A stretch of DNA of 32,000 bases from Sphingomonadales bacterium. GTDB taxonomy: Bacteria; Pseudomonadota; Alphaproteobacteria; Sphingomonadales; Sphingomonadaceae. The stretch covers positions 3,219 to 35,218 of the forward strand of contig JBBSTE010000002.1 in NCBI GenBank assembly GCA_038236185.1. The letters are read 5' to 3'. The position numbers and the translations under genes were made by a program. The stretch's first letter is position 1; each line of letters starts with the position of its first letter. The notes under the pieces were generated by a model. That model ran no database searches. It worked only from the letters and a program-made list of their open reading frames with translations, and was not told the DNA's origin. This document shows, piece after piece, positions 2,741 through 28,852 of this stretch.

Positions 2741-2817
2741 CCGCCGTTGTGCGCCGCCGCGCGGCTGCTTATACACCCCGATCATGATTCCGGCCCGATT
2801 TTGGTGGTTCCTCCGCA

Positions 2818-12212: not shown

Positions 12213-13196
12213 CTAGGCCCGCTGTCCGTGATAGTCGCGGTACCACTCGACGAAACGCGGGATGCCGACCTCGATCGGCGTGGCCGGCGCGAAACCGTGC
12301 TCGGCGGTGATCGCGGAAATGTCGGCGTAGGTCGAGGGGACGTCGCCGGGCTGCAGGGGTTCGAGCCGCTTCTCCGCCTTCAGCCCGATCGCATCCTCCA
12401 GCACCGCGATCATCTTCAACAACGGCTCGGGGTGGTTGTTGCCGATATTGTAGACGCGGTGCGGTGGGGTCGTGCCGTCGTCGGTAGGGGGATTGTCGGT
12501 CACCGCCAGCACGCCCGCGACGATATCGTCGACATAGGTGAAGTCGCGGCTCATCTCGCCGTGGTTGAAGACGCTGATCGGCTCGCCCGCGAGGATCGCC
12601 TTGGTGAACAGCCACATCGCCATGTCGGGGCGGCCCCAGGGTCCGTAGACGGTGAAGAACCTGAGGCCCGTCAGCGGGATGCGGAACAGGTGCGCGTAGA
12701 CATTGCCCATCAGCTCGTCCGCCTTCTTGGTCGCGGCGTAGAGCGAGACGGGAGAATCGACGCGGTCGCTTTCGGCGAAGGGCAGCTTGGTGTTGCCGCC
12801 GTAGACCGAACTCGACGAGGCGTAGCTCATCGAATCGAGGCCATCGAGATTACGCGCATATTCTAGCAGATTGACCTGCCCGACGATGTTTGCCTGGATA
12901 TAGGCCTGCGGATTGATCAGCGAGTAACGCACCCCCGCCTGCGCCGCGAGGTGGACGATCCGCTTGACCTTCGCGCCCGCGAGCGCCGCGCCGAGCGCCG
13001 CCGCGTCGGCGATATCGACATGGTGGAACGTGAAGTTCGCGTGTTCCGTCAGCCGGACCAGCCGGTCGCGCTTTAACTGGACCGAATAATAATCGTTGAG
13101 ATTATCGACGCCGACGACGGTCTCGCCGCGTTCGAGTAATGCGGTCGCCACATGCGAGCCGATGAACCCGGCGGCGCCGGTTACGAGATAGGTCAC
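12213..13196 (-). CDS. NAD-dependent SDR epimerase, UDP-glucuronate (or UDP-GlcNAcA) 4-epimerase family
   Basis: MTYLVTGAAGFIGSHVATALLERGETVVGVDNLNDYYSVQLKRDRL... has the GxxGxxG Rossmann motif. The catalytic YAATK (YxxxK) and a length of 327 aa are typical of Cap1J/LpsL/Gla-type uronate 4-epimerases. GTG start at 13196. Confidence 0.85.
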   Translation of the reverse strand: MTYLVTGAAGFIGSHVATALLERGETVVGVDNLNDYYSVQLKRDRLVRLTEHANFTFHHVDIADAAALGAALAGAKVKRIVHLAAQAGVRYSLINPQAYIQANIVGQVNLLEYARNLDGLDSMSYASSSSVYGGNTKLPFAESDRVDSPVSLYAATKKADELMGNVYAHLFRIPLTGLRFFTVYGPWGRPDMAMWLFTKAILAGEPISVFNHGEMSRDFTYVDDIVAGVLAVTDNPPTDDGTTPPHRVYNIGNNHPEPLLKMIAVLEDAIGLKAEKRLEPLQPGDVPSTYADISAITAEHGFAPATPIEVGIPRFVEWYRDYHGQRA

Positions 13197-13211
13197 GGTC
13201 GCACCATCCTG

Positions 13212-14009
13212 TCATTGCTCGAACAGGCCAAAATCCACGATATGGATCTGCTTGCTCTTGTCATTCGAGAACTTCGCTCGGGCAGAGAGGTACGACCAAA
13301 CCTCGTCACTTAGTTTATTATTCGCCAGGCTCATGAAAATCTCACCGTTTTCTGTGAGCACGGCAGTACGCAGATCCTTGATGAAGAAACGCCACGCCTC
13401 GATCGTCCACGGATTCTTGTCGGCGTCAACATTGAACGCGGCAAGAAACGCGGTGACCAGGTCGTAGCGCCGCTCGAACGGCGGCAGCGGCGTGAATTGC
13501 TCGATCGCGACCGGGATGCGGCGAACCTGGTAGATGTCGCCCAGCGCATCGTACAGATGCCCGTTCTCGACGACCCCGGTCGTGCGCGACGGGAGATCGG
13601 TGCCGACGACATGGTGGCCATAGAATTCGGCGACGACGGGGAAATGCGCGGGGCCGGTGCCGATGTCGAGAATGTGCATCGGCGCGCGGGTCGGCAGGTT
13701 GATCCGCGACGCGAGCGACAGCTTGCTTTCGAACCAGATCGTCGGATCGATATATTTCGAGATGTCGGCGGCCGGATCGATCACGCCTTCCGACAGATGG
13801 TAATCCTGCATTTCGCCGAACTTCTTCGTATCGACGCGGTCGAGCAGATAGCGATAGAATCGGATCTTCTCGTCGTTGCCGGGGCGGTCGGCCTCGGTCA
13901 GCCGCGCGATGGCGTCGCCGACGACATCCTCGAATTCGCCGAAGACGCCGGGCAGATGTTGTTCCTTCACCTTGGCGAGGGGAACGGGGGCGACGCGGTT
14001 GCGGATCAT
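13212..14009 (-). CDS. Class I SAM-dependent methyltransferase (paralog of 16611..17396)
   Basis: 265 aa. Motif I is MHILDIGTGPAHFPVVAEFYGHHVVGTDL, followed by RYDLVTAFLAAFN. It is colinear with the 16611..17396 product. The 3-prime ~250 bp (13212-13460) are visibly lower in GC than the neighbouring genes. Confidence 0.65.
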   Translation of the reverse strand: MIRNRVAPVPLAKVKEQHLPGVFGEFEDVVGDAIARLTEADRPGNDEKIRFYRYLLDRVDTKKFGEMQDYHLSEGVIDPAADISKYIDPTIWFESKLSLASRINLPTRAPMHILDIGTGPAHFPVVAEFYGHHVVGTDLPSRTTGVVENGHLYDALGDIYQVRRIPVAIEQFTPLPPFERRYDLVTAFLAAFNVDADKNPWTIEAWRFFIKDLRTAVLTENGEIFMSLANNKLSDEVWSYLSARAKFSNDKSKQIHIVDFGLFEQ

Positions 14010-14041
14010 ATCGGCCTTATAGTGAAGGGGTTTAGGAAACG

Positions 14042-15247
14042 TCAGACGGTCTCTGCCGCCAGTTCGCGGTGCTTTTCCATCAGTTCGGCCCAGGTGTCCT
14101 GCATCGCCTTGTCCTCGGCGATCAGTCGGGCGTGGACGGGATCGAGATCGGCATCGGGCAAGGGAGCGATCTTCACGCCATAGTCGAGCGCGCGCAGTCG
14201 CGCCATCGAGCCGGTGTTGCCGCCGATCGCATGGCCGGGCTCGGTGCGAGTGAGGACGCTCTCGTCATAGCGCAGCCCGAAGGTGTCGCAGACCGCGCGC
14301 AACAGCGGCGCGGGATCAATCGTGAACGCATCGAAATTGAGATAGCCGACCGTCCCGGCCGGGCGGAAGCGATCGAGATAGGTCCGGTAGCTGCGCGTCC
14401 ATACCGGGATGTAGGTCCGGCACTCGGCCTCGTAATAATCGGCCTCGCGATCGGCCGGCAGCTTGTTCAGCTTCGACCGCCACGCCTGTTCGGGCGACTT
14501 GAAGACGACCAGAGCGGACAGATCGAGCAGCGGGTCGTTGTCGACCAGCTTGGGCGCATTCTTGTCCGCCGAGACGAGAACGTCGGTGCCGAGCCGCGCC
14601 GCGATCTTGCGATACCAGTCGGTATGGTCCGCCGCGAGGCCGAGCCGAAAATCGAGCGACAGCGTCTCGCAGTCGCGGCCGCAGACGGAACATGGGACGA
14701 CCTGCGATTCGGCGATCGGTTTGGAAAAGTCGATGTTCTGGTACGCGTTCGCGGCGCGTTCCTTCACGATCCAGTGCGATTCGCCGATGCTCTTGACCTC
14801 GGGAAGCCCGCCCAGCACGCGATCGAGCAAGGTGCTGCCGCAATAGGAAACGCCGCAGATCACGAGGTGCTTAAAGTCCTTGCCGGCAACCGGCAGCGTC
14901 CGGTCAAGCGCGGCGACGAGATTTTCGCGGAAGGCGGGCGTCGCCGCCGGGGTGGCATCGCCCGCCGCTTCGTCGGCCGAGCGTCCGCCCTCCATCGCCG
15001 CGCTGGCGACGTGATACGCCGCCTCGAGGTCGGTGGGATCGGCCTCCGCCAGCGCCTGCCACAGCGGCCGCGCCTCGTCGCTGCGGTGTTGGGCGTCCAT
15101 CGTGCGCGCGGTCGCACGTCGGACCGCCTCGTCGTCGGGGCGCCGTTCCAGCACCTCGAACGCGATCTTTTCCGCGGAAGCGAGATCGCGTTCGGTTCGG
15201 GCATTCATCCAATGGACACGCGAGGGAGCGCGCTGAGCCACCGCCAT
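14042..15247 (-). CDS. TPR-like N-terminal region fused to a sulfotransferase-like domain
   Basis: Track ORF 14042..15457, trimmed to ATG 15247 (MAVAQRAPSRVHWMNARTERDL...). This leaves an 85-bp gap to the upstream gene stop at 15333. An alternative ATG is at 15208. KHLVICGVSYCGSTLLDRVLGG resembles a PAPS 5-prime-phosphosulfate binding loop, and ALVVFKSPEQAWRS resembles the 3-prime-PB strand-helix. There is a Cys cluster, VPCSVCGRDC. Motif-level call only. Confidence 0.5.
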   Translation of the reverse strand: MAVAQRAPSRVHWMNARTERDLASAEKIAFEVLERRPDDEAVRRATARTMDAQHRSDEARPLWQALAEADPTDLEAAYHVASAAMEGGRSADEAAGDATPAATPAFRENLVAALDRTLPVAGKDFKHLVICGVSYCGSTLLDRVLGGLPEVKSIGESHWIVKERAANAYQNIDFSKPIAESQVVPCSVCGRDCETLSLDFRLGLAADHTDWYRKIAARLGTDVLVSADKNAPKLVDNDPLLDLSALVVFKSPEQAWRSKLNKLPADREADYYEAECRTYIPVWTRSYRTYLDRFRPAGTVGYLNFDAFTIDPAPLLRAVCDTFGLRYDESVLTRTEPGHAIGGNTGSMARLRALDYGVKIAPLPDADLDPVHARLIAEDKAMQDTWAELMEKHRELAAETV

Positions 15248-15332
15248 GTTGGTATCGTCTCTCCGGAACCCCACGGCGCGGCTAAACACCATCGTGCGCC
15301 GCGATGTCCACCAAAATGACCCGCCTGTGCCG

Positions 15333-16484
15333 TTATCGCTCGGCTTTGGGTCCGACGGTCTTCGCCAATTCGGCCTTGAGACCGGCAGGGTTGGCGACGT
15401 GGTAGCGGTAGGGTGGGGTAAAGACGCGTCCGTTGCTTCCGCCTTCGTCGCGCGCACCGTTCGTCAGCAGGTTGCGCGACCGCGACAGGATGCCCGTGCC
15501 GCGGTCGCTACCGTCGTCGGACGAACGCTCGCCGATCGTGAACGCGGCCTTGCAGCGATCGTCGCCGCGCCGCGCCTCGAAATAATTGCCCTCGGCGAGC
15601 ATCTGGGCCCCGCCGGTCACCGAAACCGCCCAGCCGAGTTCGGTTCCGGTCGTGCACGGCGTGTCGCGGCCCCAATTCTCGATCACGTTGTTGAGCAGAT
15701 GGACCTTCGCGCCCGATGCCGCGCGGGGAGTGCGGCGGAAATTCCCGTCGAACAGGTTGCGCGCGACCGTCACGCGCATGTTTGCCGGAAGCTGCGACGC
15801 CGGCACCTGACCCGACGCGCCGACGAGGATCGCATAATAGGAATCGGTGAAGCGGTTGTTCGAAATGGTGACGCGGTCCGCGCCCATCGCGCGCCGCCCG
15901 GCCGCGGGGACGTCGCTCCACAGTGCGATGCATTTGTCCCCGCAGTTCGCGAAGGCATTGTGATCGATCAGGATGTCGTGCGAATCGCCTTGTGCGAGGA
16001 TCGCGACGCCGCAGCCGACGACGTCGGTCGGGCGCATCGGCCTCGCGCAATGCGACGCGGCGAATTCGCTGCGGAACACGATGTTGCGGATGACGATATT
16101 GCTCGAATCGTCGATCATCAGCTTGATGCGGGAGGGGCCGCCGATCGCCGCCGGCGACGTGTCGGCTCCGACGGGCGCGCCGTTGATCGTCACCGAAGAC
16201 GCGACGAGGATCGGTCGCTCGACCCGGATCGTGCCGTTGGTGCGGAACCGGACGCGCGTGTTGGGTTTCGTCGCGCAGGCGCGCAGCGAACCTGGTCCGT
16301 CGTCGGTCAGCGATGTGACGATGCACAGGCAATTGGCGGTGCCGGGGGCGCACAGCGCCCCGGTCGCGGCGGCGCCGAAGCCGATGCCGTGTACGGGCGA
16401 TGATGCGACCTGCGGGCTCGCGATCGCGGCACCGTTCAGCCCGATCGCGGTGAAGGCGAGTGCAAGAAGCGTGTTATGGTTCAC
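15333..16484 (-). CDS. Secreted right-handed beta-helix polysaccharide lyase, pectate lyase (PL1)-like
   Basis: Signal peptide MNHNTLLALAFTAIGLNGAAIASP. HDILIDHNAFANCGDKCIALW corresponds to the PL1 vWIDH block. NFRRTPRAASGAKVHLLNNVIENWG corresponds to the PL1 R-x-P-R-x-R-x-G-x-x-H-x-x-NN block. Confidence 0.7.
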   Translation of the reverse strand: MNHNTLLALAFTAIGLNGAAIASPQVASSPVHGIGFGAAATGALCAPGTANCLCIVTSLTDDGPGSLRACATKPNTRVRFRTNGTIRVERPILVASSVTINGAPVGADTSPAAIGGPSRIKLMIDDSSNIVIRNIVFRSEFAASHCARPMRPTDVVGCGVAILAQGDSHDILIDHNAFANCGDKCIALWSDVPAAGRRAMGADRVTISNNRFTDSYYAILVGASGQVPASQLPANMRVTVARNLFDGNFRRTPRAASGAKVHLLNNVIENWGRDTPCTTGTELGWAVSVTGGAQMLAEGNYFEARRGDDRCKAAFTIGERSSDDGSDRGTGILSRSRNLLTNGARDEGGSNGRVFTPPYRYHVANPAGLKAELAKTVGPKAER

Positions 16485-16610
16485 GATGCTCTCCGATCCC
16501 GAAATAAGCGAACGGCGATCGCAATGGCGCCAGCTTCCGAAACCGGCGCTGAACGATCACGCGGATCAGCCCGCTTGCGAGCCACAAGCCCCTTCTCTAA
16601 CGACATCGCG

Positions 16611-17396
16611 ATGACGGGGGATGCTGAACGCGCCGGTGCGGGCGGAGAACCGGGTCGGTCGGCTCCCGCCAGCACATTCGCGTTGAGAGCAGAGGAACTG
16701 CGTCGGACGACGATAACCGCGCGGCGCATTCTGCGGGCGTTCGATTCCGGCGTCGCCGCGATCGATCCTGACCGGATTGCGGGGCTGGAGGCCTATGTCG
16801 CAGCGCATCCCGCTTCGACGAGCGATCCGCTCGAGGCCAAATATCTCGATCTTCCGCTCTACTTGAAGGACAAGGCGCGTTGGCTGGTCGATCTTCGGCT
16901 CGACGACGCGGCGCCGCAATCGATCCTCGACCTTGGCATGGGGGGCGGGCATTTCCCGTTTCTCGCCAAGGCGCACGGGCACCGCGTGCTCGGGATCGAC
17001 CTCGACGTGTCGCTCTATTCGCAAATCCTCGAAGCCTATGACGTGACGCGGCTGGTGCATCGTATCGAACCGGACGCGCCTCTGCCGGTGGACGACCGGT
17101 TCGACCTAATCACCGCGCTGCAGATAACCTTCAATCGCAAGCCCGGCATCGCGCACAGCGAGGAGGGCGGCGCCTATTGGACCGAGGCCGAATGGGCGAC
17201 GTTCATCGACGAGCTTTGCCGCCATCTGGTCTATCCGGGGCGGATTTTCTTCAATTTCAACCGCCAGACGATGCCGTCGGGCGAGCATCACGCCGATATG
17301 CTGCTCGACCTGTTCGAGGCGAACGGCGCCCGGGTCGATTTCTGGAAATATACCGCGCTGCTGGAATTGACCGGGCCGATCACGCTGCGCGCGTAA
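16611..17396 (+). CDS. Class I SAM-dependent methyltransferase (paralog of 13212..14009)
   Basis: Track ORF 16476..17396. ATG 16611 is preferred because it gives 261 aa with motif I (SILDLGMGGGHFPFLAKAHGHRVLGIDL) at the same distance from the N-terminus as in the 265-aa paralog. It also avoids overlapping the divergent lyase gene. RFDLITALQITFN and WTEAEWATFIDEL match RYDLVTAFLAAFN and WTIEAWRFFIKDL in the paralog. ATG 16524 remains possible. Confidence 0.6.
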   Translation: MTGDAERAGAGGEPGRSAPASTFALRAEELRRTTITARRILRAFDSGVAAIDPDRIAGLEAYVAAHPASTSDPLEAKYLDLPLYLKDKARWLVDLRLDDAAPQSILDLGMGGGHFPFLAKAHGHRVLGIDLDVSLYSQILEAYDVTRLVHRIEPDAPLPVDDRFDLITALQITFNRKPGIAHSEEGGAYWTEAEWATFIDELCRHLVYPGRIFFNFNRQTMPSGEHHADMLLDLFEANGARVDFWKYTALLELTGPITLRA

Positions 17397-17420
17397 CCGC
17401 ACCCAAGGAGCCGCAAGCCG

Positions 17421-18107
17421 ATGGACAAACCGACGCCCCCCGAACGCAAGGCGGAGATGCAGCGCCTTTTCGCAAAATACGATTACCTGACCGCCTATCG
17501 GATGTTCACCGACTGGTTCGTCGCGCGCGATCCGCACGGCGCGGTCGGCAGCCAATGGGAGGAACTGGGGCAGCTCCAGATCGAATATATGCTGGCGCAC
17601 GGAATGAAGCCCGAGCACCGTCTGCTCGATTTCGGCTGCGGGACGCTCCGCGCGGGGCGGCATTTCATCCGCTACCTCGATGCGGGCCGTTATACCGGGG
17701 TCGATCTTTCGGCGGGCGCGCTGGCCTACGGCAAATCGCTTGTTGCCGAGGAGGGGCTGGAGGACAAACACCCCCGCCTCATCCAGAACACCGATATCGC
17801 GACGCTCTCGTATCGTGCGGATTCGTTCGATTACATCATGGCGCAATCGGTCTTCACACATTTGCGCCTGCCCGAAATCGGCGCGTGTCTGAAGAGCTTC
17901 GCGAGCGTCATGCACGCGGGGACCGCGTTGTTCTTCACCTATAACGAAGCCCCCGAGGCGACCGAGACGACGCTCAAGGATTTCAAATTTCCCTTCGAGG
18001 CGATCGCCGAACGCGCGCGCGAACGCGGCATTTCGGTCGAACGCCGCGACGATTACCCGCACCCGCGCGGGCAGCTGATGGCGGAGGGGCGACTGACCGC
18101 GGCTTGA
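17421..18107 (+). CDS. Class I SAM-dependent methyltransferase (Methyltransf_11/25-like)
   Basis: AAGGAG at 17404-17409 lies upstream of ATG 17421. Motif I is HRLLDFGCGTLRAGRHF. The acidic residue at the end of beta2 is in YTGVDLS. The post-I/II region is FDYIMAQSVFTHL. Confidence 0.7.
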   Translation: MDKPTPPERKAEMQRLFAKYDYLTAYRMFTDWFVARDPHGAVGSQWEELGQLQIEYMLAHGMKPEHRLLDFGCGTLRAGRHFIRYLDAGRYTGVDLSAGALAYGKSLVAEEGLEDKHPRLIQNTDIATLSYRADSFDYIMAQSVFTHLRLPEIGACLKSFASVMHAGTALFFTYNEAPEATETTLKDFKFPFEAIAERARERGISVERRDDYPHPRGQLMAEGRLTAA

Positions 18108-19036
18108 TCGCGTGCCTTGCGGGATGTCTCGCGCTTTGGTCTAACCGTCTGGGGCGCAATGATCGTGGGGGCGGTTCGGTGGCGGATGTCTTTGTCTCGT
18201 ACAAGCGCGAGGACGAGGCCGGGGTGGCGCGGCTGGTCAAGGCGCTGCGTGGACAGGCGCTGAGCGTCTGGTGGGACCGCGACATCCCGACCGGCGCGCC
18301 GTGGGAAGACACGATCGAGCGCGAACACGCGGCGGCGCGGTCGATCGTCGTCTGCTGGTCGAAGGCGGCGGTCGCGAGCGAGAACGTCAAGGCCGAGGCG
18401 CGCGCCGCGCGCGCCGATCACCGCCTCGTCCAGACCTTCATCGAGCCGTGCAATCCGCCGATGTTCTTCGGCGAGCGGCAGGGCGTCGATCTGTCGGGCT
18501 GGAGCGGTAAGGCCGACGATCCCCGTTTTCAGGCGGTCCTCGCGGCGGTGCGCGCGGCGCTCGACGGCAAGGCGGCTGAAGCTGGAGTCGGCGCAATTGC
18601 CGCGGGTACGTCTCGCAAGCCATTCATCCTGGCGGGAGTCGCTGCGGCGGTGCTCGTCGCGGGCGGGATCGGCGCGATGGCGCTGCGGCCCGAGCCTGCG
18701 AAGGTTATGCCGAAGGCCGCCCCCGCGCCCAGCCCCGCCGACGTCCTGCTGGCGAAGGTGGATGGAAAGTGGGGCGTCCAGAACAAGTGCGACGAGAGCT
18801 ATCGCTACCGCGTCGCCAGGGACGCGGCGACGGGCGACAAGCATATCTTCGCCGAGCGTCCCGGTTTCAAATCGGAGGGCCGGGTCGTCAGCGCCGCCGA
18901 CGGGGTGATCCTGTCGGAGGCGCTCGAACCCGCGGCGGATCGCGGCAATCTCGTCGAACTCCGGCCCGAACCGGGGCAGCTCGTGCTGCAAGACCGGCGG
19001 ACCGACACGCGGCTGGTGCTCGTCAAATGCCGCTGA
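18104..19036 (+). CDS. Membrane-anchored TIR-domain protein: N-terminal cytoplasmic TIR, one TM helix, small C-terminal extracytoplasmic domain
   Basis: TIR (TIR_2-like) signature DVFVSYKREDEAGVARLVKALRGQALSVWWDRDIPTGAPWEDTIEREHAAARSIVVCWSKAAVASENVKAEA. The Glu at codon 18395-18397 sits at the position of the conserved catalytic Glu. The TM helix PFILAGVAAAVLVAGGIGAMAL is at 18620-18685. The ~97-aa C-terminal domain has two Cys residues. The track start is TTG 18104, overlapping the upstream stop. The more likely start is GTG 18179, giving MADVFVSY... Confidence 0.8.
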   Translation: MIACLAGCLALWSNRLGRNDRGGGSVADVFVSYKREDEAGVARLVKALRGQALSVWWDRDIPTGAPWEDTIEREHAAARSIVVCWSKAAVASENVKAEARAARADHRLVQTFIEPCNPPMFFGERQGVDLSGWSGKADDPRFQAVLAAVRAALDGKAAEAGVGAIAAGTSRKPFILAGVAAAVLVAGGIGAMALRPEPAKVMPKAAPAPSPADVLLAKVDGKWGVQNKCDESYRYRVARDAATGDKHIFAERPGFKSEGRVVSAADGVILSEALEPAADRGNLVELRPEPGQLVLQDRRTDTRLVLVKCR

Positions 19037-21090
19037 TGCCGCGCAGCGTCCGGACCAGCGTCGGACGGCTGCGGCGCAGCGCGAGGCAATATCCCGGCGG
19101 CGGCCCGACGGTGTTTCGCGCGACGCTCGCGCTTGCGATGTTCCTGCTCGGGCTGAAGGGCTTCCAGCAAGTCTATCAGCCGCAGAGTTTCGCGGACTGG
19201 AGCGACTGTCTGTTCCGCACAGGACAGCTCGTCGTCGGCCAGTTTCCGAGCGAACTGGTGCCGGGACTCGGCGATCCGCACAGGGCTATCCCGGTCTACC
19301 TCAATCTCGCGCGGTTCGCGTTGCCGCTGCTGGCGTTGTGGTTCGCGGTGTCGGCGCTGATCAAGCGCATCCGCCAGCCACTGCGCTCGGCGGGCGCGGG
19401 GCTGCTGTCGGACCATCTCGTCTTCGCAGGGGCCGGCGAGACGCTTCCCGCGCTGCTCGCCGAGGCGAAACGCGAGAAGCGGCGCGCGGTCGTGATCGGA
19501 CCCGCACCCGCGCCCGCCGATCTCGCGGGCGCGATCGTCGTTCCGGGCGACCCCTCCGACGTCGAGAGCTGGCGGCAGATCGGCTTGAGTCGGGCGCGCG
19601 CGGTGGTGATCACCGGCATGAAGGACGGGCCGGCGTTGAGCGCGGCGCTGGCCGCGACGGAGGTCGCGCGCGCCGAACGCCCGGCGACGCGCGAGCCGCT
19701 CGGGATCGTCTGCTCGGTCGATAGCGCCGATCTGCGCGCCCTGCTCGACAGCGTGTTTCGCGGGCAGGACCCGATCGCGGGCGTGGTGCTCCACGCGACC
19801 TCGCCCGCGCGGGTCAGGGCGCGCGCGCTGCTCTCCCGGCACCCGCTCTATCGCGGCGTCGATGTCGAGGCGGGCGAAGGTGTTCATGCCTTGATCGTCG
19901 GGTTTGGTCGCACCGGAGAGGAGGTCGCGCTCCAGGTCCTGAAGACCGGCATCGTCGACGAGACGACCCCGCCGCGCGTCACCGTCGTCGATCCCGACGC
20001 GACGCGGCTCGGACGGGCGTGGCGCGAGCGACTCGACCACGCCGCGCCGCTCGATCGCGTAACCTTCATCGACGCCGCGATCGATCCGGCGGATCGCGAC
20101 GCGCTCGCGGAACTGCTCGACCGGATCGGCGCGGTCAATGCGATGTACGTCTGCCCGCGCGATGATACTCAGGCATTGCTGATCGCAGTGGCGATCCGGC
20201 GCGTCTATGCGAAACGCGGGGCGGGCGCGCCGCCGCTCTATTGCTATCAACGCGACGCCGACGATCTGAGCCGGCACTTCTCGGGGGCCGAACTCGGCGA
20301 TTTGGACCTCACCCGCATCCACGGTTTCGGTCATGCCGAGGCGCGACGCCTCGAATCGCTGACCGGCGAGACGCTCGATCGCCGCGCGCGGCAGATCCAC
20401 GAGGCGTATCTCGCCGAGTTCGGCGGCGGCGGTGCGGAGTCGCAGCGGCCCTGGCCATTGCTGGGAGACCTCTACCGGCAGGCGAACCGCGATCAGGCGG
20501 ATTATCTGCCGATGCGTCTCGCCTGCCTCGGCCTGCGCGAGGTCGATGAGCCCGGTGCGGTTTCTCTCTCGGCCGAAATGCTGGAGCGCGCCGCGCGGAG
20601 CGAGCACGCGCGCTGGGCGACGAGCGCGGAACTCATCGGCTGGCGGCTCGGCGCGCGCGACAATCCGCGCCAGCTGCATCCCGATCTGGCGCCGTACGAG
20701 CGGCTGAGCGAGATCGACAAGGCCAAGGATCGCGCGGTGATCCGCAACCTCGCTTCGCTGCTCGCGCGGCATCGCGCGGGGCTTCGTGCGGTCGAGACGC
20801 TCGCCTTGACGGCCGATCCCGGTGGCGATGCGGCGGAACAGGCGAAGGCGCTTTTGCGGCGGGTTCGCGCGGTATCCGATACCGCGCCGGTGGTCGTCGC
20901 CGCGCTGGCGGCGCCCACCGAGGTGGCGGTGCTGCGGCGGGCGGCGGCGCGCGCGCCCGATCTGGTCTGGCGGTTGCGGCTCGCTCCCGACGCGGTCGCG
21001 CGCATCCGCGTCTGGCCCGCCGCACAGGACCGCGAAGACGCGCGGTGGCTCGTTAACCACGCCGATCAGGTGCTGTTCCTCAAGGAATAG
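19027..21090 (+). CDS. Membrane protein with 2 N-terminal TM helices, two TrkA_N/RCK-like Rossmann domains, a RyR (ryanodine-receptor repeat) domain and an uncharacterised ~100-aa tail
   Basis: Track ORF 18769..21090, trimmed to ATG 19027 (MPLMPRSVRT...), which overlaps the TIR gene stop (19034-19036) by 10 nt. TM helices are at about 19108-19164 and 19288-19365. Rossmann 1 is degenerate (HLVFAGAGETL). Rossmann 2 is canonical (HALIVGFGRTGEEVA...VTVVDPD). The RyR motif is EHARWATSAELIGWRLGARDNPRQLHPDLAPYERLSEIDKAKDRAVIRNL, compared with the animal RyR repeat HELWA-x6-GWTYG-x2-RD-x3-K-x-HPCLV-x-(F/Y)-x2-L-x-E. Confidence 0.7.
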   Translation: MPLMPRSVRTSVGRLRRSARQYPGGGPTVFRATLALAMFLLGLKGFQQVYQPQSFADWSDCLFRTGQLVVGQFPSELVPGLGDPHRAIPVYLNLARFALPLLALWFAVSALIKRIRQPLRSAGAGLLSDHLVFAGAGETLPALLAEAKREKRRAVVIGPAPAPADLAGAIVVPGDPSDVESWRQIGLSRARAVVITGMKDGPALSAALAATEVARAERPATREPLGIVCSVDSADLRALLDSVFRGQDPIAGVVLHATSPARVRARALLSRHPLYRGVDVEAGEGVHALIVGFGRTGEEVALQVLKTGIVDETTPPRVTVVDPDATRLGRAWRERLDHAAPLDRVTFIDAAIDPADRDALAELLDRIGAVNAMYVCPRDDTQALLIAVAIRRVYAKRGAGAPPLYCYQRDADDLSRHFSGAELGDLDLTRIHGFGHAEARRLESLTGETLDRRARQIHEAYLAEFGGGGAESQRPWPLLGDLYRQANRDQADYLPMRLACLGLREVDEPGAVSLSAEMLERAARSEHARWATSAELIGWRLGARDNPRQLHPDLAPYERLSEIDKAKDRAVIRNLASLLARHRAGLRAVETLALTADPGGDAAEQAKALLRRVRAVSDTAPVVVAALAAPTEVAVLRRAAARAPDLVWRLRLAPDAVARIRVWPAAQDREDARWLVNHADQVLFLKE

Positions 21091-21097
21091 CCGCGTC

Positions 21098-21130
21098 TTG
21101 ATTATATAAGCATACGCATTATATGTGCCG
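21098..21130 (+). promoter_or_regulatory. AT-rich putative promoter/operator of the marR-emrAB operon
   Basis: TTGATT (21098-21103) followed by ATATAA-N9-TTATAT (inverted repeat, about 21104-21124), ending 8-9 nt before the marR ATG at 21133. It is the only AT-rich patch for kilobases. MarR regulators usually bind palindromes overlapping their own promoter. No canonical spacing was verified. Confidence 0.3.
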
Positions 21131-21132
21131 CC

Positions 21133-21576
21133 ATGAGCGACAATATCGGATTTCTGATCAGCGACGTTTCGCGCCTGATGCGGCGGCGTTTCGACGAAAG
21201 CGCGCGGCTGATCGGCGTGACGCGCGCGCAGTGGCGCGCGCTGACCACCCTCAACCGCAACGAAGGCATCAACCAGGGCGGACTCGCCGACTTGCTCGAG
21301 GTCGAACCGATCACTTTGTGCCGGATGATCGACCGGCTCGAGGAAGCGGGGCATGTCGAGCGCCGCCGCGACCCCAACGATCGCCGCGCCTGGCGGATTC
21401 ATCTCACCGAAACCTCGCGCCCTTTGCTCGATCAGCTCAGGAGAATCGCCGACGATCTTTTCGCGCGCGCGCTCTACGGGATCGATGCGCGCGATCAGGC
21501 GCGATTCGTCGCGACGCTGGGCGCGATCCGCGAAAACCTGAGCGATGACGGCGCGGAGGTGGCGAGTCATGGCTGA
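21133..21576 (+). CDS. MarR family transcriptional regulator (EmrR-like)
   Basis: 147 aa. The winged-helix region is LTTLNRNEGINQGGLADLLEVEPITLCRMIDRLEEAGHVERRRDPNDRRAWRIHLTE (the DxR wing motif typical of MarR). It overlaps the downstream emrA start by 8 nt. Confidence 0.85.
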   Translation: MSDNIGFLISDVSRLMRRRFDESARLIGVTRAQWRALTTLNRNEGINQGGLADLLEVEPITLCRMIDRLEEAGHVERRRDPNDRRAWRIHLTETSRPLLDQLRRIADDLFARALYGIDARDQARFVATLGAIRENLSDDGAEVASHG

Positions 21577-22660
21577 CGCCGATCCCCAGCGCAACCTGAC
21601 CGTCGATGCGGTCGAGATCGCTCCGCCCGAGGACGCCTCCGCGGAAACCAAGCGGCAGGGCTGGCTGCGTCCGCTGCTGATGATCAGCGTGCCGCTGCTG
21701 ATCGCGTTGATCGGCGGCTATTTCTGGCTGACCTCGGGGCGGTTCGTCTCGACCGACAACGCCTATCTGCAACAGGACAAGGTGTCGGTTTCGTCCGATG
21801 TCGCCGGGCGGATCGTCCAGGTCGCGGTGCGCGAGAACCAGGTCGTGAAAACTGGCGACCTCCTGTTCCGCGTCGATCCCGATCCGTACCGGATCGCGGT
21901 CGATCAGGCCAATGCCGCGATCGCCGACGCGCAGGTCGAGGTCACCTCGCTGCAGGCGGATTTTCGCGGGACGAGCGCGGACATCCAGGCGGCGCGCGAC
22001 CAGATCCTGTCGGCGCGGCAGGACTACGACCGCCAGGCCGAGTTGATGAAGCGCGGCTTCACGACGCGCGCGCGGCTCGAGCAATCCGAACATGCGCTCG
22101 AACAGGCGCGCGCCGCGCTCGGTAACGCGCAGGCGAACGCCGCCGAGGCCAAGGCGAAGCTCGCGACCGGCAGCGCGGTTCCCGGCGTCTCGCCCGCGAT
22201 CGCCGCGGCGCGAGTGCAGCGCGCCAAGGCCGCGCTCGATCTCGGGCGGACGTCGGTCGTCGCCCCGGTCGGCGGCACGATCAGCCAGTCGGATCGGCTT
22301 CAGGTCGGCCAGATGATGATGACCGGGCTGCCCGCGGTCAGCATCGTCGTGAACGGCAAGTCCTGGGTCGAAGCGAATTTCAAGGAAACCGACCTCAACC
22401 ACATGCGCGTCGGCCAGCCCGCCGAGATCAGCTTGGACGCCTATAAGGGGCTGAAGCTGAAGGGCCATGTCCAGTCGATCGGCGCGGGCACGGGCTCCGA
22501 ATTCTCGGTGCTGCCGGCGCAGAATGCGACGGGCAATTGGGTCAAGGTGACGCAACGCGTACCGGTCCGCATCGCGATCGACGAAGCAAGCCCGCGCCGG
22601 TTGATCGCCGGGCTGAGCGCCGACGTGACCGTCGATATCCGCGATTCCGGCGCGCGTTAG
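21569..22660 (+). CDS. emrA: HlyD/EmrA-family membrane fusion protein of an MFS efflux pump
   Basis: Track ORF 21545..22660. ATG 21569 is preferred because GGAGG at 21556-21560 lies upstream. It has a single N-terminal TM helix (LLMISVPLLIALIGGYFWL), the lipoyl-like motif VSTDNAYLQQDKVSVSSDVAGRIVQVAVRENQVVKTGDLLFRVDP, a coiled-coil region and a C-terminal beta-barrel. Confidence 0.85.
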   Translation: MADADPQRNLTVDAVEIAPPEDASAETKRQGWLRPLLMISVPLLIALIGGYFWLTSGRFVSTDNAYLQQDKVSVSSDVAGRIVQVAVRENQVVKTGDLLFRVDPDPYRIAVDQANAAIADAQVEVTSLQADFRGTSADIQAARDQILSARQDYDRQAELMKRGFTTRARLEQSEHALEQARAALGNAQANAAEAKAKLATGSAVPGVSPAIAAARVQRAKAALDLGRTSVVAPVGGTISQSDRLQVGQMMMTGLPAVSIVVNGKSWVEANFKETDLNHMRVGQPAEISLDAYKGLKLKGHVQSIGAGTGSEFSVLPAQNATGNWVKVTQRVPVRIAIDEASPRRLIAGLSADVTVDIRDSGAR

Positions 22661-22687
22661 GATGGGCCGAAGATCCGAGCGTGAAAT

Positions 22688-22863
22688 CCCTCTCCCGCTT
22701 TTGCGGGAGAGGGAGGGGCCCGCGAAGCGGGAGGGTGCGGGTCTTCTTTCTTCTTCTTGCCAGGCGCGCGTCGGTGAAAGAAGAAGAAAGAAGACCCTCA
22801 CCCAACCCTCTCCCGTAAGCGGGAGAGGGCTAAGAAGAAGCGGCCGCTTAGATGGCGGCCGCT
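22688..22863. repeat. Nested palindromic intergenic repeat element (REP/MITE-like) between emrA and emrB
   Basis: Hairpin A is CCCTCTCCCGC-tttt-GCGGGAGAGGG (22688-22713). The central hairpin has a perfect 20-bp stem, GGGTCTTCTTTCTTCTTCTT (22739-22758) / AAGAAGAAGAAAGAAGACCC (22778-22797). Hairpin C is CCCTCTCCCG-taag-CGGGAGAGGG (22806-22829). Hairpin D is AGCGGCCGC-ttagatg-GCGGCCGCT (22839-22863). Confidence 0.7.
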
Positions 22864-24465
22864 AGCCCCGCGCGCGGCGTCGATCCGCTCGCCGAGGTTC
22901 CCGCGACCGCCGCCGCCGAACCGTTCGAGGATCGTGCCGCGCTCCACACCTCGAACGTGCCGCTGCTGACGATCGGCGTGATGGCGGCGACGATCATGCA
23001 AATCCTCGATTCGACGATCGCCAATGTCGCGCTGCCGCGGATGACGCCCGATCTCGGCGCGACCGCCGACACGATCACTTGGGTGCTGACGAGTTATATC
23101 GTCGCCTCCGCGGTCGCGATCCCGGTGACCGGCTGGCTCGCCGATCGGGTCGGTTCGCGCAACTTGTTCCTCGCCGCGACGGTCGGCTTTGTCGCCGCCT
23201 CAATGCTGTGCGGCCTCGCGACGAGCCTGCCCGAGATGGTGCTGTTCCGTGTCCTGCAGGGGACCGCGGCGGCGTTCATGAATCCGCTCAGCCAGACGGT
23301 GATGATGGATATCAACCGCCCGTCGAAACAGGCGAGCGCGATGTCGATCTGGGGCATGGGGGTGATGGTCGGGCCGGTGCTCGGCCCGGTGATCGGCGGC
23401 TGGCTGACCGACAATTACAATTGGCGCTGGGTGTTCTACGTCAACGTGCCGATCGGCATCGCGTGTTTCGCGATCCTGTGGGCGCTGCTGCCGACGCGGC
23501 CGATCGGCCGGCGGCGGTTCGATATCTTCGGCTTCTCGATGCTCGCGCTGGCGATCGCGTCGTTCCAGATCATGCTCGACCGCGGCCAATCGAACGACTG
23601 GTTCCAGTCGTGGGAGGTGTGGATCGAGGGGATGGTCGCGCTGTGCGCGCTGTGGATGTTCCTGGTGAACCAGTTCACCGCGAAACAGCCGATGTTCGAC
23701 CGCGAATTGCTCAGGAACCGCAACCTCCTGACCGGCATGTTTTTCATGCTGGTGACGGGTGTGCTGATGATGGCGACGATGGCGCTGCTGCCGCCGATGT
23801 TGCAGACGTTGTTCGGCTATCCCGTACTCGACACCGGGTTGCTGCTCGTGCCGCGCGGTATCGGCATCATGGCGAGCATGTACGTCGCGGGGCAGGCGAT
23901 CCAGCGCGGCTTCGATCCGCGCATCCTCGTTGGCACGGGCCTCGTCGTCGCGGCGGGTTCGCTGTGGCAGATGACGCAGTGGACGCTGGTGATGGGGTCG
24001 ACGCCGTTCATCGTCAGCGGTCTAGTTCAAGGGCTGGGGTTGGGGCTGATCTTCATCCCGCTCAACATCACCGCGTTCGGCACGCTGCCGCCGCATCAGC
24101 GGACCGAAGGCGCGAGCCTGATGAACCTGTTCCGCAACGTCGGCGCCTCGGTCGGGATTTCGGTCGTCACCGCGCTCCTCGCGCGCAACATCCAGACGAG
24201 CCACATGGAATTGGGCGGGCATATCACCGGTTACAGCGTCGATTCGGTCGACCCCGGCATCGTCTCGGTGCTCGGCGCGACGGGGGAGACCGTCACCGCG
24301 ATGCTCAACGCGGAGGTAAACCGCCAGGCGGGGATGATCGCCTATCTCGACGACTTCAAATTGATGATGATCCTGACCCTGCTCGCGATCCCGCTGGTGC
24401 TGGTGCTCAAACGCCCGCCGCGGCCGAAGGCGGGCGACGAGGCGATCCACGTGGCGATGGACTGA
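22852..24465 (+). CDS. emrB: EmrB/QacA-subfamily (DHA2, 14-TMS) MFS drug efflux transporter
   Basis: 537 aa. The N-terminal motif LLTIGVMAATIMQILDSTIANVALPRM is characteristic of DHA2. Motifs GWLADRVGSRNLFL and LFRVLQGTAAAFMNPL are present. The protein is highly hydrophobic throughout and lies downstream of emrA. Confidence 0.9.
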   Translation: MAAASPARGVDPLAEVPATAAAEPFEDRAALHTSNVPLLTIGVMAATIMQILDSTIANVALPRMTPDLGATADTITWVLTSYIVASAVAIPVTGWLADRVGSRNLFLAATVGFVAASMLCGLATSLPEMVLFRVLQGTAAAFMNPLSQTVMMDINRPSKQASAMSIWGMGVMVGPVLGPVIGGWLTDNYNWRWVFYVNVPIGIACFAILWALLPTRPIGRRRFDIFGFSMLALAIASFQIMLDRGQSNDWFQSWEVWIEGMVALCALWMFLVNQFTAKQPMFDRELLRNRNLLTGMFFMLVTGVLMMATMALLPPMLQTLFGYPVLDTGLLLVPRGIGIMASMYVAGQAIQRGFDPRILVGTGLVVAAGSLWQMTQWTLVMGSTPFIVSGLVQGLGLGLIFIPLNITAFGTLPPHQRTEGASLMNLFRNVGASVGISVVTALLARNIQTSHMELGGHITGYSVDSVDPGIVSVLGATGETVTAMLNAEVNRQAGMIAYLDDFKLMMILTLLAIPLVLVLKRPPRPKAGDEAIHVAMD

Positions 24466-24985: not shown

Positions 24986-26280
24986 TGCGCATCGCTATCG
25001 CTTTGGCCCTCGTCGCCGGCGCCGCGCTAGCCGGTTGCGACCGTGCCGATGCGCCGACCAGTTCGCAGGTCGGCCCCAACCCGCCGCTTCCCGAACAAAC
25101 CCAATACCTCGTTCCCCCGATAAAGATCGCGCCGGTCGCGAAATGGAACGGGGCAACGCCCACGGTTCCCGCGGGCCTAAAGATTGCCGCTCTCGCGACC
25201 GGGCTGAAGCATCCGCGCTCGTTGTATGTCCTCCCCAACGGCGACGTGCTGGTGGTCGAGACCAACGGCCCGGCCGAGCCGGGCTCGCGGCCCAAGGACA
25301 TCATCATGGGCTGGGTGCAGAGCTTTGCGGGGGCGGCCGCCAAGGGCGGCAACCGCATCACGCTGCTTCGTGACGCTGACGGCGACGGTAAACCCTAGGT
25401 CCGCACCGTCTTCCTCGACCATCTCAATTCGCCGTTCGGCGTCGCGCTCGTCGGAGGCGATCTATACGTTGCCAACACCGACGCGATCGTCCGCTATCGC
25501 TATGCGACGGGGCAGACCAGGATTACCAGCGGCGGCACGATCCTGACGCATCTGCCGGGCGGCCCGATCGACCATCACTGGACCAAGAGTCTCGTCGCGA
25601 GCCCCGACGGAAGCAAACTCTACGCGGGCGTGGGATCGAACAGCAACATCACCGAAAACGGGATCGAGGCGGAAAAGGAACGCGCCGCCATTTGGGAGAC
25701 CGACCGCACGACCGGCGCGCACCGTCTCTACGCGACAGGGCTTCGCAACCCCAACGGTCTGTCGTGGAATCCCGAGACCGGGCAATTGTGGGCGGTCGTC
25801 AACGAACGCGACGAACTTGGCCCCAACCTCGTGCCCGATTACATGACCTCGGTGCGCGACGGCGGTTTCTATGGCTGGCCCTATAGTTATTGGGGAAGGC
25901 ACATCGATCCGCGCGTCCAGCCGCGGCGCGACGATCTCGTCGCGAAGGCGATCGTCCCTGATTATGGCCTCGGCTCGCATGTCGCGCCGCTCGGCATGAC
26001 TTTCTATACAGGAGCGATGCTGCCCGCGGGGTATCGCGGCGGTGCGTTCGTCGGCGAGCATGGCAGCTGGGATCGCTCGCCGTTGAGCGGCTATCGCGTC
26101 GTCTTCGTTCCGTTCGCGGGTGGGCGTCCGTCGGGCAAGGCGCAGGACGTTGTCACCGGATTCCTCGACAAGGACAATCACGCGCGCGGTCGTCCCGTCG
26201 GCCTTGCGGTCGACCGCGCCGGGGCGTTGTTGGTGGCCGATGATCTCGGCGATACCGTCTGGCGCGTCACCGCAGGCTAG
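24982..26280 (+). pseudogene. PQQ-dependent sugar (sorbosone/glucose) dehydrogenase-family lipoprotein interrupted by one in-frame TAG at 25396-25398
   Basis: Track ORFs 24676..25398 and 25630..26280 are in the same frame (954 nt apart). Reading through the TAG gives a continuous beta-propeller sequence: MMRIAIALALVAGAALAGC (lipobox) ...[46 protein letters not shown]...[30 protein letters not shown]...[28 protein letters not shown]...[16 protein letters not shown]...[27 protein letters not shown]. Confidence 0.75.
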
Positions 26281-27922
26281 GCAGGTCGAGCCCCTTCTCC
26301 TGCGCGCACTCCAATGCGATCTCATAACCCGCATCGGCGTGACGCATCACCCCGGTCGCTGGATCGTTCCACAAAACCCGCTCCAGCCGCTTCGCCGCCT
26401 CCGGCGTGCCATCGGCGACGATCGCCATCCCGGCATGCTGCGAATAGCCCATGCCGACGCCGCCGCCGTGGTGGAGCGAAACCCAGGTCGCGCCGCTCGC
26501 GGTGTTCAGAAGCGCGTTGAGGAGCGGCCAGTCGCTGACTGCGTCGCTGCCGTCGCGCATCGCCTCGGTCTCGCGGTTGGGCGACGCGACTGAGCCTGAA
26601 TCGAGATGATCGCGACCGATCACCACCGGCGCTTTCAGCTCGCCGCTCGAGACCATCTCGTTGAAAGCCAAACCGAGGCGATGGCGGTCGCCGAGGCCGA
26701 CCCAGCAGATCCGCGCGGGGAGGCCCTGAAACTTGATCCGCTCGCGCGCCATGTCGAGCCAGCGGCGCAAGGGCGCGTTGTCGGGCAATAGCTCCTTCAC
26801 CTTGGCGTCGGTCTTGTAGATGTCCTCGGGATCGCCCGACAGCGCGACCCAGCGGAACGGGCCGATACCGCGGCAGAACAGCGGACGGATATAGGCAGGG
26901 ACGAAGCCGGGGAAGGCGAAGGCGTTCTCGACGCCCTCGTCTTTCGCGACCTGGCGGATGTTGTTGCCGTAATCGACCGTCGGCACCCCCGCCGCCTGGA
27001 AAACGAGCATCGCGCGGACGTGCGTTGCCATCGATTTGCTCGCGGCGGCGGCGACGGTTGCGGGATCCTGTTCGCGCGTTGCGATCCAGCGCTCGACGGT
27101 CCAGCCCGCGGGAAGGTAGCCGTTGACGGGATCGTGCGCGCTGGTTTGGTCGGTCAGGAGATCGGGGCGGACGCCGCGCGCGAACATCTCGGGAAGGAGT
27201 TCGGCGGCGTTGCCGAGCAGGCCGACCGAGATCGGCTCTTTCGCGTTGGTCACGATATCCAGCGCTTCGTCGAGGCTGTCGGTGGCGCGATCGAGATAGC
27301 CGGTCCTGAGCCGCATCTCGATCCGGCTCTGCTGGCATTCGATCGCGAGACACGACGCGCCCGCCATCACCGCCGCCAAGGGCTGCGCGCCGCCCATCCC
27401 GCCTAGGCCCGCGGTCAGCAGCCACCGCCCGGAAAGGTCGCCGCCGTAATGCTGGCGGCCCATCTCGACGAAGGTCTCGTAGGTGCCCTGCACGATGCCC
27501 TGCGTGCCGATGTAGATCCACGATCCCGCGGTCATCTGGCCGTACATCGCGAGGCCCTTGCGATCGAGTTCGTCGAAATGCTCCCAATTCGCCCATTTGG
27601 GGACGAGGTTGCTGTTCGCGATCAGCACGCGCGGCGCATCCGCGTGCGTTCGGAAGACGCCAACCGGCTTGCCCGACTGGACGAGCAACGTCTCGTCGTC
27701 GTTCAGGCAGCGCAGTGTGTCGACGATCCGGTCGTAGCTCTCCCAGTCGCGCGCGGCGCGCCCGATGCCGCCGTAGACGACGAGTTCCTCGGGGCGCTCG
27801 GCGACGTCGGGGTGGAGGTTGTTCATCAGCATCCGCAGCGGCGCCTCGGTCAGCCAGCTCTTGGCGCTGAGCGTGGTGCCGGTGGCGGCTTTGATGGTGC
27901 GGCTGGGGTCGAGACGGGTCAT
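26267..27922 (-). CDS. hutU: Urocanate hydratase
   Basis: Track ORF 26267..28159, trimmed to ATG 27922 ([60 protein letters not shown]...). It is about 552 aa, with highly conserved HutU blocks ([35 protein letters not shown]). Confidence 0.95.
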
Positions 27923-28704: not shown

Positions 28705-28708
28705 GGCA

Positions 28709-28830
28709 CCCCTCCCTTGCAGGGAGGGGCTGGGGGTGGGTGCCGAGCGAAGCGAGGCTCTTGAGGTCGCCGTCGAGCGCGACCTTGCAGGTCGCGCACC
28801 CACCCCCGACCCCTCCCTTGCAGGGAGGGG
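28709..28830. repeat. Nested palindromic intergenic repeat element (REP/MITE-like) between hutH and hutG
   Basis: Two identical terminal hairpins, CCCCTCCCT-tgc-AGGGAGGGG (28709-28729 and 28810-28830), flank a long-range inverted repeat GGGGGTGGGTGC (28732-28743) / GCACCCACCCCC (28796-28807). An inner hairpin is GCGCGACC-ttgca-GGTCGCGC (28777-28797). The architecture matches the element at 22688-22829. Confidence 0.7.
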
Positions 28831-28852
28831 AGCGCGTCTCGCCTGCCGGCCG

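Follow-up and report, generated by a model that had tools for sequence, protein, structure and literature searches.

A TIR gene overlapping the gene for a channel-like RCK-RyR protein in a Sphingomonadales bacterium: a candidate Thoeris-like signaling module

Does a bacterial TIR protein send its signal to a membrane protein through a ryanodine receptor (RyR) repeat domain? This question is raised by two overlapping genes in a 32,000-nucleotide (nt) stretch of contig JBBSTE010000002.1 (assembly GCA_038236185.1, positions 3,219 to 35,218) from a Sphingomonadales bacterium. We refer to this whole stretch as the window and give its coordinates throughout. The upstream gene (18179..19036, + strand) encodes a protein of 285 amino acids (aa) with a cytoplasmic TIR domain, one transmembrane (TM) helix and a conserved C-terminal domain. 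The downstream gene (19036..21090, + strand) encodes a protein of 684 aa, termed the effector here, with a channel-like TM module, tandem RCK domains, an RyR Repeat12-like domain and a C-terminal alpha/beta domain. We regard it as about evenly balanced whether the two genes form a Thoeris-like TIR signaling module with a previously undescribed effector, in which a signal derived from ADP-ribose (ADPR) would gate a channel-like effector via its RyR domain. The support is purely bioinformatic, and the signaling interpretation put forward in a first-pass annotation of this DNA is supported by the computational checks.

Results

TIR genes recurrently adjoin the effector gene

The first-pass annotation had raised the question of whether homologs of the RyR protein adjoin TIR genes in other genomes, and they do. 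A TIR gene adjoins the gene for a TM-type effector at 8 of about 14 loci with readable context, in about six genomic settings, and the partner TIR proteins fall into four architectures. The partner is a TIR-TM-ectodomain protein in the window, at locus L003 and at locus L010 (Brevundimonas lutea), a TIR-TPR protein of about 660 aa at L001 and L002, a TIR-FHA protein encoded in convergent orientation at L046 and L048, and a TIR protein with a weak WGR-like tail, and thus a questionable TIR-WGR type, at L029. The flanking genes differ from locus to locus (a glycan cluster and MarR; RTX-like proteins; a peptidyl-prolyl isomerase; dapD and purK; ankyrin; TctC and M20), from which it follows that the two genes travel together. 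In the effector clade closest to the window, the TIR gene has been exchanged and the effector kept: the effectors of the two TIR-TPR loci are 55% and 53% identical to the window effector and yet adjoin TIRs with only 26-28% identity to that of the window. The effector of the TIR-TM locus L003 is 49% identical to that of the window.

Close homologs of the effector are very rare, with 6-9 matches among 5.8 billion clusters. An exhaustive HMMER scan returned 136 representative clusters at E<1e-30, mostly of 570-600 aa and ending right behind the RyR domain. A metagenome scan with a narrower family alignment yielded 5 loci, and a genome scan by one peptide pattern returned mostly a soluble clade from Chromatiaceae.

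The RyR domain carries the mapped contacts of cyclic ADPR isomers

The RyR Repeat12-like tandem of the effector occupies aa 439-577 (20350..20766, + strand), is all-helical, and is identified by Pfam PF02026, by PDB sequences, by Foldseek and by BLASTP. The RyR-repeat motif noticed at first pass was confirmed by a PF02026 match of 32.6 bits (E 9.4e-8), which exceeds the curated cut-off of 27.4, and by a fold match to RyR3 Repeat12. Compared with PDB sequences, the region matched Repeat12 of animal RyR1-3 and a Bacteroides RyR protein (E 2.5e-14 to 1e-6), with E down to 5e-10 for the effector region against RyR1.

Phage proteins with an RyR domain bind 2' cyclic ADPR (2'cADPR), 3'cADPR and cADPR at nanomolar affinity (PMC13232231; 10.64898/2026.06.04.730250). 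Cleavage of the ribose-ribose bond is described for RyDEP, one of these proteins, and its pocket includes H75, W78, H100 and D117 (PMC13232231). In another, RyR Tad, the pocket is formed by H129/W132, K147/H154 and K170/D171, and its mutation weakens 3'cADPR binding about 100-fold (10.64898/2026.06.04.730250). When the effector was compared with RyR Tad (gp68 of phage CB1) by BLASTP (E 9e-6), all six ligand residues aligned: H524, W527, R541, H548, K564 and D565 of the effector with H129, W132, K147, H154, K170 and D171, respectively. Position 541 is thus Arg where the 3'cADPR pocket of RyR Tad has K147. The pocket positions of the effector also correspond to RyDEP H75, W78, H100 and D117.

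In an alignment of 23 diverse family members, 22 of 36 columns conserved at ≥90% lie in the two RyR repeats, and no other part of the protein is as well conserved across the family. The Rossmann domains have lost their GxGxxG and acidic motifs in different clades, those of RCK1 being degenerate in the window clade and those of RCK2 in L029. Because the RyR pocket is the only ligand site common to all members, the RCK motifs not being conserved, we prefer it as the putative receiver of a signal and consider it a better sensor candidate than the Rossmann domains. The canonical RCK2 site of the window effector possibly provides a second or alternative site.

The effector resembles ligand-gated RCK channels in fold

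An AlphaFold2 model of the effector was built from an 11-sequence alignment, with a predicted local distance difference test (pLDDT) score of 83.8 and a predicted template modeling (pTM) score of 0.79. In this model, an Arg-rich cytosolic N terminus (aa 1-25) is followed by a TM module (19111..19404, + strand; also supported by Foldseek) composed of TM1 (aa 26-47), a short helix and loop (aa 48-86; DCLFRTGQLVVGQFP) and TM2 (aa 87-123). The short helix spans aa 52-66 and is followed by a conserved VVGQFP and the loop, and TM2 is a long helix. According to Pfam, the model and Foldseek, the RCK domains stand directly behind this inner TM helix. RCK/Rossmann domain 1 comprises aa 127-255 (19414..19800, + strand; TrkA_N, PF02254, E 2.2e-9), and RCK/Rossmann domain 2 comprises aa 284-431 (19885..20328, + strand), with Sacchrp_dh_NADP-like (E 1e-4) and NAD_binding_9 matches in Pfam and with similarity to TrkA tandem-RCK structures. 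Behind the RyR tandem, the model places a four-stranded alpha/beta domain at the C terminus (aa 582-684; 20779..21090, + strand), which matched no Pfam family and is common to the soluble relatives described below.

In a Foldseek search against PDB, the best matches were full-length chains of GsuK, a multi-ligand-gated K+ channel (534-537 columns, E 7e-9), followed by the TrkA tandem-RCK ring, full-length MthK and Slo1; RyR3 Repeat12 was matched with E 4e-5. The model thus matches both ligand-gated RCK channels and RyR Repeat12, as a structural check of the first-pass assignment was meant to establish. In a viral structure library, a phage K+-channel protein ranked first, and many phage proteins with an RyR domain came next. 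We describe the effector as channel-like in predicted fold and topology, from which we infer that it may conduct ions.

Two TM helices and two dinucleotide-binding Rossmann domains had been read from the sequence at first pass. The helices are present in the model and both Rossmann domains are matched by Pfam, but the first carries a degenerate motif: in the window clade RCK1 has GAGETL in place of GxGxxG, and its beta2 does not end in an acidic residue. What looks like a canonical dinucleotide site is present only in the second Rossmann domain, with GFGRTG ... VVDPD. All three Pfam assignments expected for the pair, TIR_2, TrkA_N and RyR, were matched.

The TIR protein resembles a transmembrane receptor in layout

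The TIR domain comprises aa 1-140 (18179..18598, + strand) and was aligned with seven other partner TIRs. It matches Pfam TIR_2 (PF13676) with E 3.5e-21 at aa 29-139 of the open reading frame (ORF) 18104-19036. The Glu codon at 18395..18397 (+ strand), singled out in the first-pass annotation as catalytic, encodes E73, which lies within a motif S-x-x-V-x-x-E and is the same residue in all eight partner TIRs. This invariance is consistent with a role as the putative catalytic Glu. By eye, E73 corresponds to the catalytic Glu E642 of SARM1 (motif KDWVHKE), the computed HMMER alignment covering only residues 2-64. Compared with PDB sequences, the TIR protein gave nothing below E 0.01, and only weak SARM1 matches. 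The best PADLOC match was a SAVED-TIR effector model, which covers the generic TIR core alone (aa 25-101). A single-sequence AlphaFold2 model of the TIR protein was too poor (pLDDT 47) and was not used.

A TM helix at aa 148-170 (18620..18688, + strand; Kyte-Doolittle maximum 2.27) is kept in the homologs at L003 and L010. It is followed by a beta-rich C-terminal domain at aa 190-285 (18746..19033, + strand), presumably periplasmic, with conserved Cys 204 and Cys 284 in an alignment of three homologs. This domain of about 95 aa is 61-68% identical in two other loci, with both cysteines kept, and matched no Pfam family. The TIR protein is without a signal peptide. The C-terminal domain should be extracytoplasmic, because there is no signal peptide and the TIR domain needs cytosolic NAD+. 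With an ectodomain, a TM helix and a cytosolic TIR domain, the window TIR protein looks like a transmembrane receptor of Toll-like layout.

Both genes are real and overlap at a stop/start junction

The TIR gene, delimited by Pfam TIR_2, by homolog starts and by G+C content at third codon positions (GC3), starts at GTG 18179 and not at TTG 18104, because the homologs at L003 and L010 begin with MADVFVSYKR; the public gene call begins there as well. The ORF from 18104 given at first pass is therefore 5' extended. At the junction (19027..19038, + strand, as read from the sequence), the stop codon TGA 19034-19036 of the TIR gene meets two in-frame ATG codons of the effector gene, one at 19027 (10-nt overlap) and one at 19036 (TGATG, 1-nt overlap). 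Both codons of the overlap first described, TGA 19034-19036 and ATG 19027, are present, but the public gene call takes ATG 19036 as the effector start instead. In homologs, the TIR-effector spacing is 1 nt (L001), 7 nt (L003) or 125 nt (L002), and the L010 genes overlap.

Both are genuine genes of the + strand, with GC3 values typical of coding sequence (0.86 for the TIR gene, 0.85 for the effector gene). Two antisense ORFs, 18053-18991 (- strand, 312 aa) and 18805-21651 (- strand, 948 aa), are high-GC artefacts with GC3 of 0.74-0.76. As a real gene, the 948-aa ORF is ruled out by its lower GC3, and the Pfam domains and homologs are all on the + strand. Around the pair, neither a sigma-70 promoter nor a convincing terminator was found.

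A soluble branch of the family is coupled to SLOG genes

A second branch of the family consists of soluble relatives without the TM module. Their genes are directly preceded by an LSDAT_prok SLOG gene (PF18171, E down to 6e-63) in 12 loci, namely L004 (3-434), L051 (2892-3668), L013 (3980-4735) and nine further Chromatiaceae loci, often behind GGACT and OsmC genes. SLOG/LSDAT is the domain that Pfam describes as 'SLOG in TRPM' and that is found in TRPM channels, and the soluble branch is therefore a second pairing of a nucleotide-centered domain with an RyR protein. The Chromatiaceae pairs resemble the window pair in that the partner has the same core of tandem Rossmann domains, RyR domain and C-terminal domain (30-33% identity), preceded by a gene for a nucleotide-centered domain. 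They differ from it in that the relatives have no TM module, the upstream gene encodes SLOG instead of TIR, and the locus is vertically conserved beside GGACT and OsmC genes. The tandem Rossmann-RyR core is thus repeatedly coupled to genes for nucleotide-centered domains, either TIR or SLOG.

Discussion

For how such a pair might act, we propose a chain of steps. The membrane-anchored TIR protein would be activated through its variable non-TIR part, which in the window is the TM helix and the small extracytoplasmic domain, and which in relatives would be the TPR, FHA or possible WGR domain. The activated TIR domain would turn NAD+ into an ADPR-derived signal, most plausibly a cADPR isomer, and this signal would bind to the partner protein at its RyR Repeat12-like domain. 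Ligand binding would then be passed to the RCK ring and open, or otherwise change, the membrane module, the tandem-RCK build being that of GsuK. The resulting ion flux or depolarization would halt the cell, most probably as an abortive-infection response to phages. The sequences and the model establish the domain content, the fold, the recurrent gene pairing and the conservation of the TIR Glu and the RyR pocket; from these we infer the enzyme activity, the nature of the signal, the domain that receives it, conduction by the membrane module and the biological role.

Several observations weigh against this proposal. With regard to the membrane module, the K+ filter T-V-G-Y/F-G is missing from the effector, which has LVVGQFP at that position, variable across the family, and the module is without an Ion_trans_2 match in Pfam. 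When a profile built from 23 sequences of the TM region was run against PDB sequences, it matched no channel, only PsbU and claudin at chance level, so it is from the fold that the channel assignment derives. With regard to the pairing, no TIR neighbor was seen for the TM-type members at L005, L037, L040 and L049/L050, nor for any soluble relative. With regard to sensing, the RyR pocket of animals is known to bind further adenine ligands, ATP among them, and the ligand need not be TIR-made. To our knowledge, an extracytoplasmic domain on a TIR protein is atypical among phage sensors.

The genomic context is a further point on this side. There is no integrase, tRNA or PADLOC-recognized neighbor gene in the window, where glycan-modification genes lie upstream of the pair and MarR-EmrAB and hut genes downstream. 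At L010 the pair lies between dapD and purK, with housekeeping flanks in a Pfam scan. PADLOC matched none of the neighbors in the window, L001, L029 and L046, few loci being examinable. To the first-pass question of whether such pairs lie near known defense islands, the answer is negative for the loci examined (the window, L001, L010, L029 and L046), where no known defense genes were recognized near the pair. In the collections searched, no family member was found on plasmids (by tblastn) or on viral contigs (by a scan), and tblastn of the RyR region against phage genomes gave a single weak match. A role in defense is weakened by this absence of a defense-island or mobile-element context.

Physiological signaling, in which the TIR ectodomain would sense the envelope, is a serious rival, given the lack of defense context and the absence of family members from the plasmid and viral collections searched. 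The same chain from TIR to an RyR/RCK channel would here serve physiology: the TIR ectodomain would sense an envelope or environmental cue, and the messenger would tune ion (K+) flux or membrane potential. This would suit the position of the pair among housekeeping and glycan genes, away from defense genes, integrases and tRNAs, as well as the receptor-like TIR protein with its TM helix and conserved Cys-pair domain. Soluble relatives are, moreover, vertically conserved at one Chromatiaceae locus, and RCK domains normally regulate K+ transport. However, the TIR partner is swapped among TM, TPR, FHA and WGR-like sensor types with the effector kept, and the pair occurs, patchy and rare, in about six unrelated settings; both patterns are typical of defense modules. 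In addition, phages carry RyR-domain proteins specifically to defeat TIR signaling (PMC13232231). Serious as it is, we consider a purely physiological role unlikely.

A second alternative concerns which domain receives the signal. The Rossmann/RCK part could read the TIR product, and the RyR domain could be either a RyDEP-like glycosidase that destroys the signal, as a reset, or a metabolic sensor of ATP/ADP. The canonical GFGRTG...VVDPD of RCK2 agrees with this, and according to PDB structure titles GsuK and TrkA bind NAD, ADP or ATP in their RCK Rossmann sites. Human RyR3 Repeat12 binds ATP analogs (PDB 6uhh, 9ls7), and the His/Asp catalytic dyad of RyDEP is present in the effector as H524 and D565 (PMC13232231). 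Yet GxGxxG is not kept across the TIR-linked members, whereas the RyR pocket is nearly invariant in the family. In addition, none of eight other RyDEP homologs tested cleaved 2'/3'cADPR and six bound it with the dyad kept, the non-catalytic sponge homologs remaining highly similar to RyDEP in sequence (PMC13232231). His and Asp also occupy the dyad positions of RyR Tad (H129, D171), for which cADPR binding alone is described. We hold this division of roles to be rather improbable, a little more so than a physiological role.

Could the order of the two proteins be reversed? The membrane RCK/RyR protein would then sense membrane potential, ions or nucleotides and activate the TIR protein as an NAD+-depleting effector. 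Many bacterial TIRs do deplete NAD+ in CBASS, Pycsar, pAgo and Avs systems, according to a recent survey (10.64898/2025.12.03.692087), and the best PADLOC match of the window TIR is an effector model, although limited to the generic TIR core. Against a reversed order, the TIRs carry their own variable sensor-type domains (TPR, FHA, TM with ectodomain), like signal-generating ThsB-like proteins, and the partner carries a domain type shown to bind TIR products. A reversed order seems to us quite improbable. Finally, a coincidental adjacency of two functionally unrelated genes, for which one could cite that no shared promoter or terminator was detected, is effectively refuted by the stop/start overlap and by the census of eight TIR-linked loci in about six contexts with an invariant Glu (P <1e-15 for 8 of 14 loci, assuming a TIR gene at no more than 0.2% of flanking positions).

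How does a Thoeris-like module built in this way compare with catalogued systems? At first pass the gene composition was not recognized as any named defense system, and our searches agree with this: the effector was unmatched in PADLOC-DB 2023, which gave generic TIR matches only, and in NCBIfam 2026, which gave nothing relevant. A survey of TIR systems from December 2025 distinguishes 29 putative Thoeris types, of which types V-XI were validated, among them types with membrane or ion-channel effectors (10.64898/2025.12.03.692087). The text of this survey and a part of its Table S1 contain no RyR or TrkA effector and no peptides of the TIRs studied here (10.64898/2025.12.03.692087). As judged from PADLOC and NCBIfam, a comparison with type X and the labels in those portions of the survey, the effector falls outside the catalogued Thoeris effector families (ThsA, ThsC ... 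ThsL). Literature searches joining RyR with TIR, Thoeris, SLOG or conflict systems yielded the two phage preprints alone (PMC13232231; 10.64898/2026.06.04.730250).

Thoeris types I, II, V, VI and VII share with the window pair a TIR protein with a catalytic Glu beside a single effector, in which a ligand-binding domain is combined with a killing module; in types II, V, VII and some of type VI this module is in the membrane. By contrast, their known sensors are SLOG, Macro, DUF2270, DUF6650 and SLATT, none being RyR, and no effector has RCK. No PADLOC or NCBIfam model of their effectors matches the window, and the window pair lies outside a defense island. Thoeris type X is composed of ThsB and an 'ion channel' effector, ThsK, and its defense activity was validated in Bacillus sp. 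BH32 (10.64898/2025.12.03.692087). Like the window pair, it is a two-gene TIR module in which the partner is a channel-like membrane protein. However, its effector has neither RCK nor RyR domains, and its TIR is of the ThsB type (PF08937) instead of TIR_2 (PF13676). Identity with type X is ruled out, as the effectors are unrelated (BLASTP E 5). At the type X locus of Vibrio sp. JCM 19052 (L044), the effector has 208 aa, matches Ion_trans_2 weakly and carries the filter TLTYGGF; its gene lies between two ThsB-type TIR genes (2740-4468). Plasmid matches considered as candidate type X loci proved to belong to type II and to encode Macro effectors.

The K+ channels and gating rings GsuK, MthK and TrkA are the best structural matches of the effector and share with it the order of TM1, short helix, TM2 and tandem RCK. 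Unlike them, the window protein is without a TVGYG-type filter and without an Ion_trans_2 or TM-profile match, and it adds the RyR Repeat12-like and C-terminal alpha/beta domains. Phage RyDEP and RyR Tad belong to the same family, PF02026, as the RyR domain of the effector, with conserved contacts to cADPR isomers and similar structures. They are, however, small soluble dimers that sponge up or cleave the host signal, whereas the window domain is an internal tandem in a host membrane protein encoded beside a TIR gene. For this reason, the window RyR domain is presumably a native receiver of the signal and not an inhibitor.

The comparison can be extended to animals, where cADPR binding to Repeat12 is unsettled. 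Homologous repeats are attached to an ion channel in animal RyR-mediated Ca2+ release, and to a channel-like protein here, and in both cases the enzymes upstream, TIR or SARM1, are of a class that makes molecules of the cADPR type. The pores are not related to each other, with a two-TM RCK-type module here and a six-TM pore in RyR. Nothing in our data shows a common descent of the whole animal and bacterial pathway.

What would follow from the proposed chain? We suggest, as a tentative view to which we give somewhat less than even weight, that the pair represents a native bacterial pathway in which a TIR-made messenger of the cADPR type directly gates an ion channel via RyR Repeat12. The effector would then be the host receptor from which phage sponges were borrowed, and a tractable prokaryotic counterpart, possibly an evolutionary source, of the disputed cADPR-RyR link of animals. 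If so, the pair would add a new effector class and, with RyR Repeat12, a new sensing domain to TIR-based bacterial immunity. The phage preprints leave open why phages carry cADPR-binding RyR proteins, and a host RyR receptor would answer this. Whether Repeat12 binds cADPR has been argued for animal ryanodine receptors over decades, and a small, clonable two-gene system would allow binding of cADPR-type ligands by Repeat12, and its transmission to a channel, to be measured. The TM-ectodomain, TPR, FHA and WGR-like TIR partners would in this case be alternative triggers for a single output module, and their variety would be useful for working out how bacterial TIRs are activated.

Additional Observations

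Further proteins are encoded beside some family members. At L047, a TM-type relative without a visible TIR gene, a WD40 beta-propeller protein (3-1817) lies directly upstream and is cut by the contig end; its missing N terminus could hold a TIR or another signaling domain. At L029, on a contig labelled as an Akkermansia metagenome-assembled genome (MAG), the WGR-like C terminus of the TIR partner (3937-4854) is weakly matched (E 0.004), and a protein of 678 aa encoded upstream (1656-3692) has a weak WGR match as well (E 0.056). At L040 (2050-4364), from a Eubacteriales MAG, a stand-alone RyR-domain protein of 153 aa (PF02026, E 9e-21) is encoded directly behind the family member. AIG2/GGACT-like genes, of the gamma-glutamyl cyclotransferase fold, adjoin family members in two distant clades (L049 2426-3472, L050 2031-3350 and L007 4967-5500).

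The surroundings of the window pair comprise genes for glycosyltransferases, methyltransferases and a sulfotransferase, a MarR-EmrAB operon and a hut operon. Upstream, the region 12500-18107 has a lower G+C content (0.60-0.63) and holds three S-adenosylmethionine methyltransferase-like genes, a sulfotransferase gene with TPR, and a gene for a pectate-lyase-like beta-helix protein; it is probably a surface-glycan modification cluster. Genes for large glycosyltransferases and a UDP-glucose dehydrogenase lie upstream of this region. An efflux operon with MarR and EmrA/HlyD-type genes, plus an EmrB-type gene of the major facilitator superfamily, adjoins the pair in the window (21133-24465) and at L001 (7615-9009). 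The two copies are only 32-35% identical, with MarR inverted, and their shared presence may be coincidence. Farther downstream, on the - strand (26267-31569), genes for urocanase, histidine ammonia-lyase and an amidohydrolase, probably imidazolonepropionase, represent ordinary housekeeping histidine utilization.

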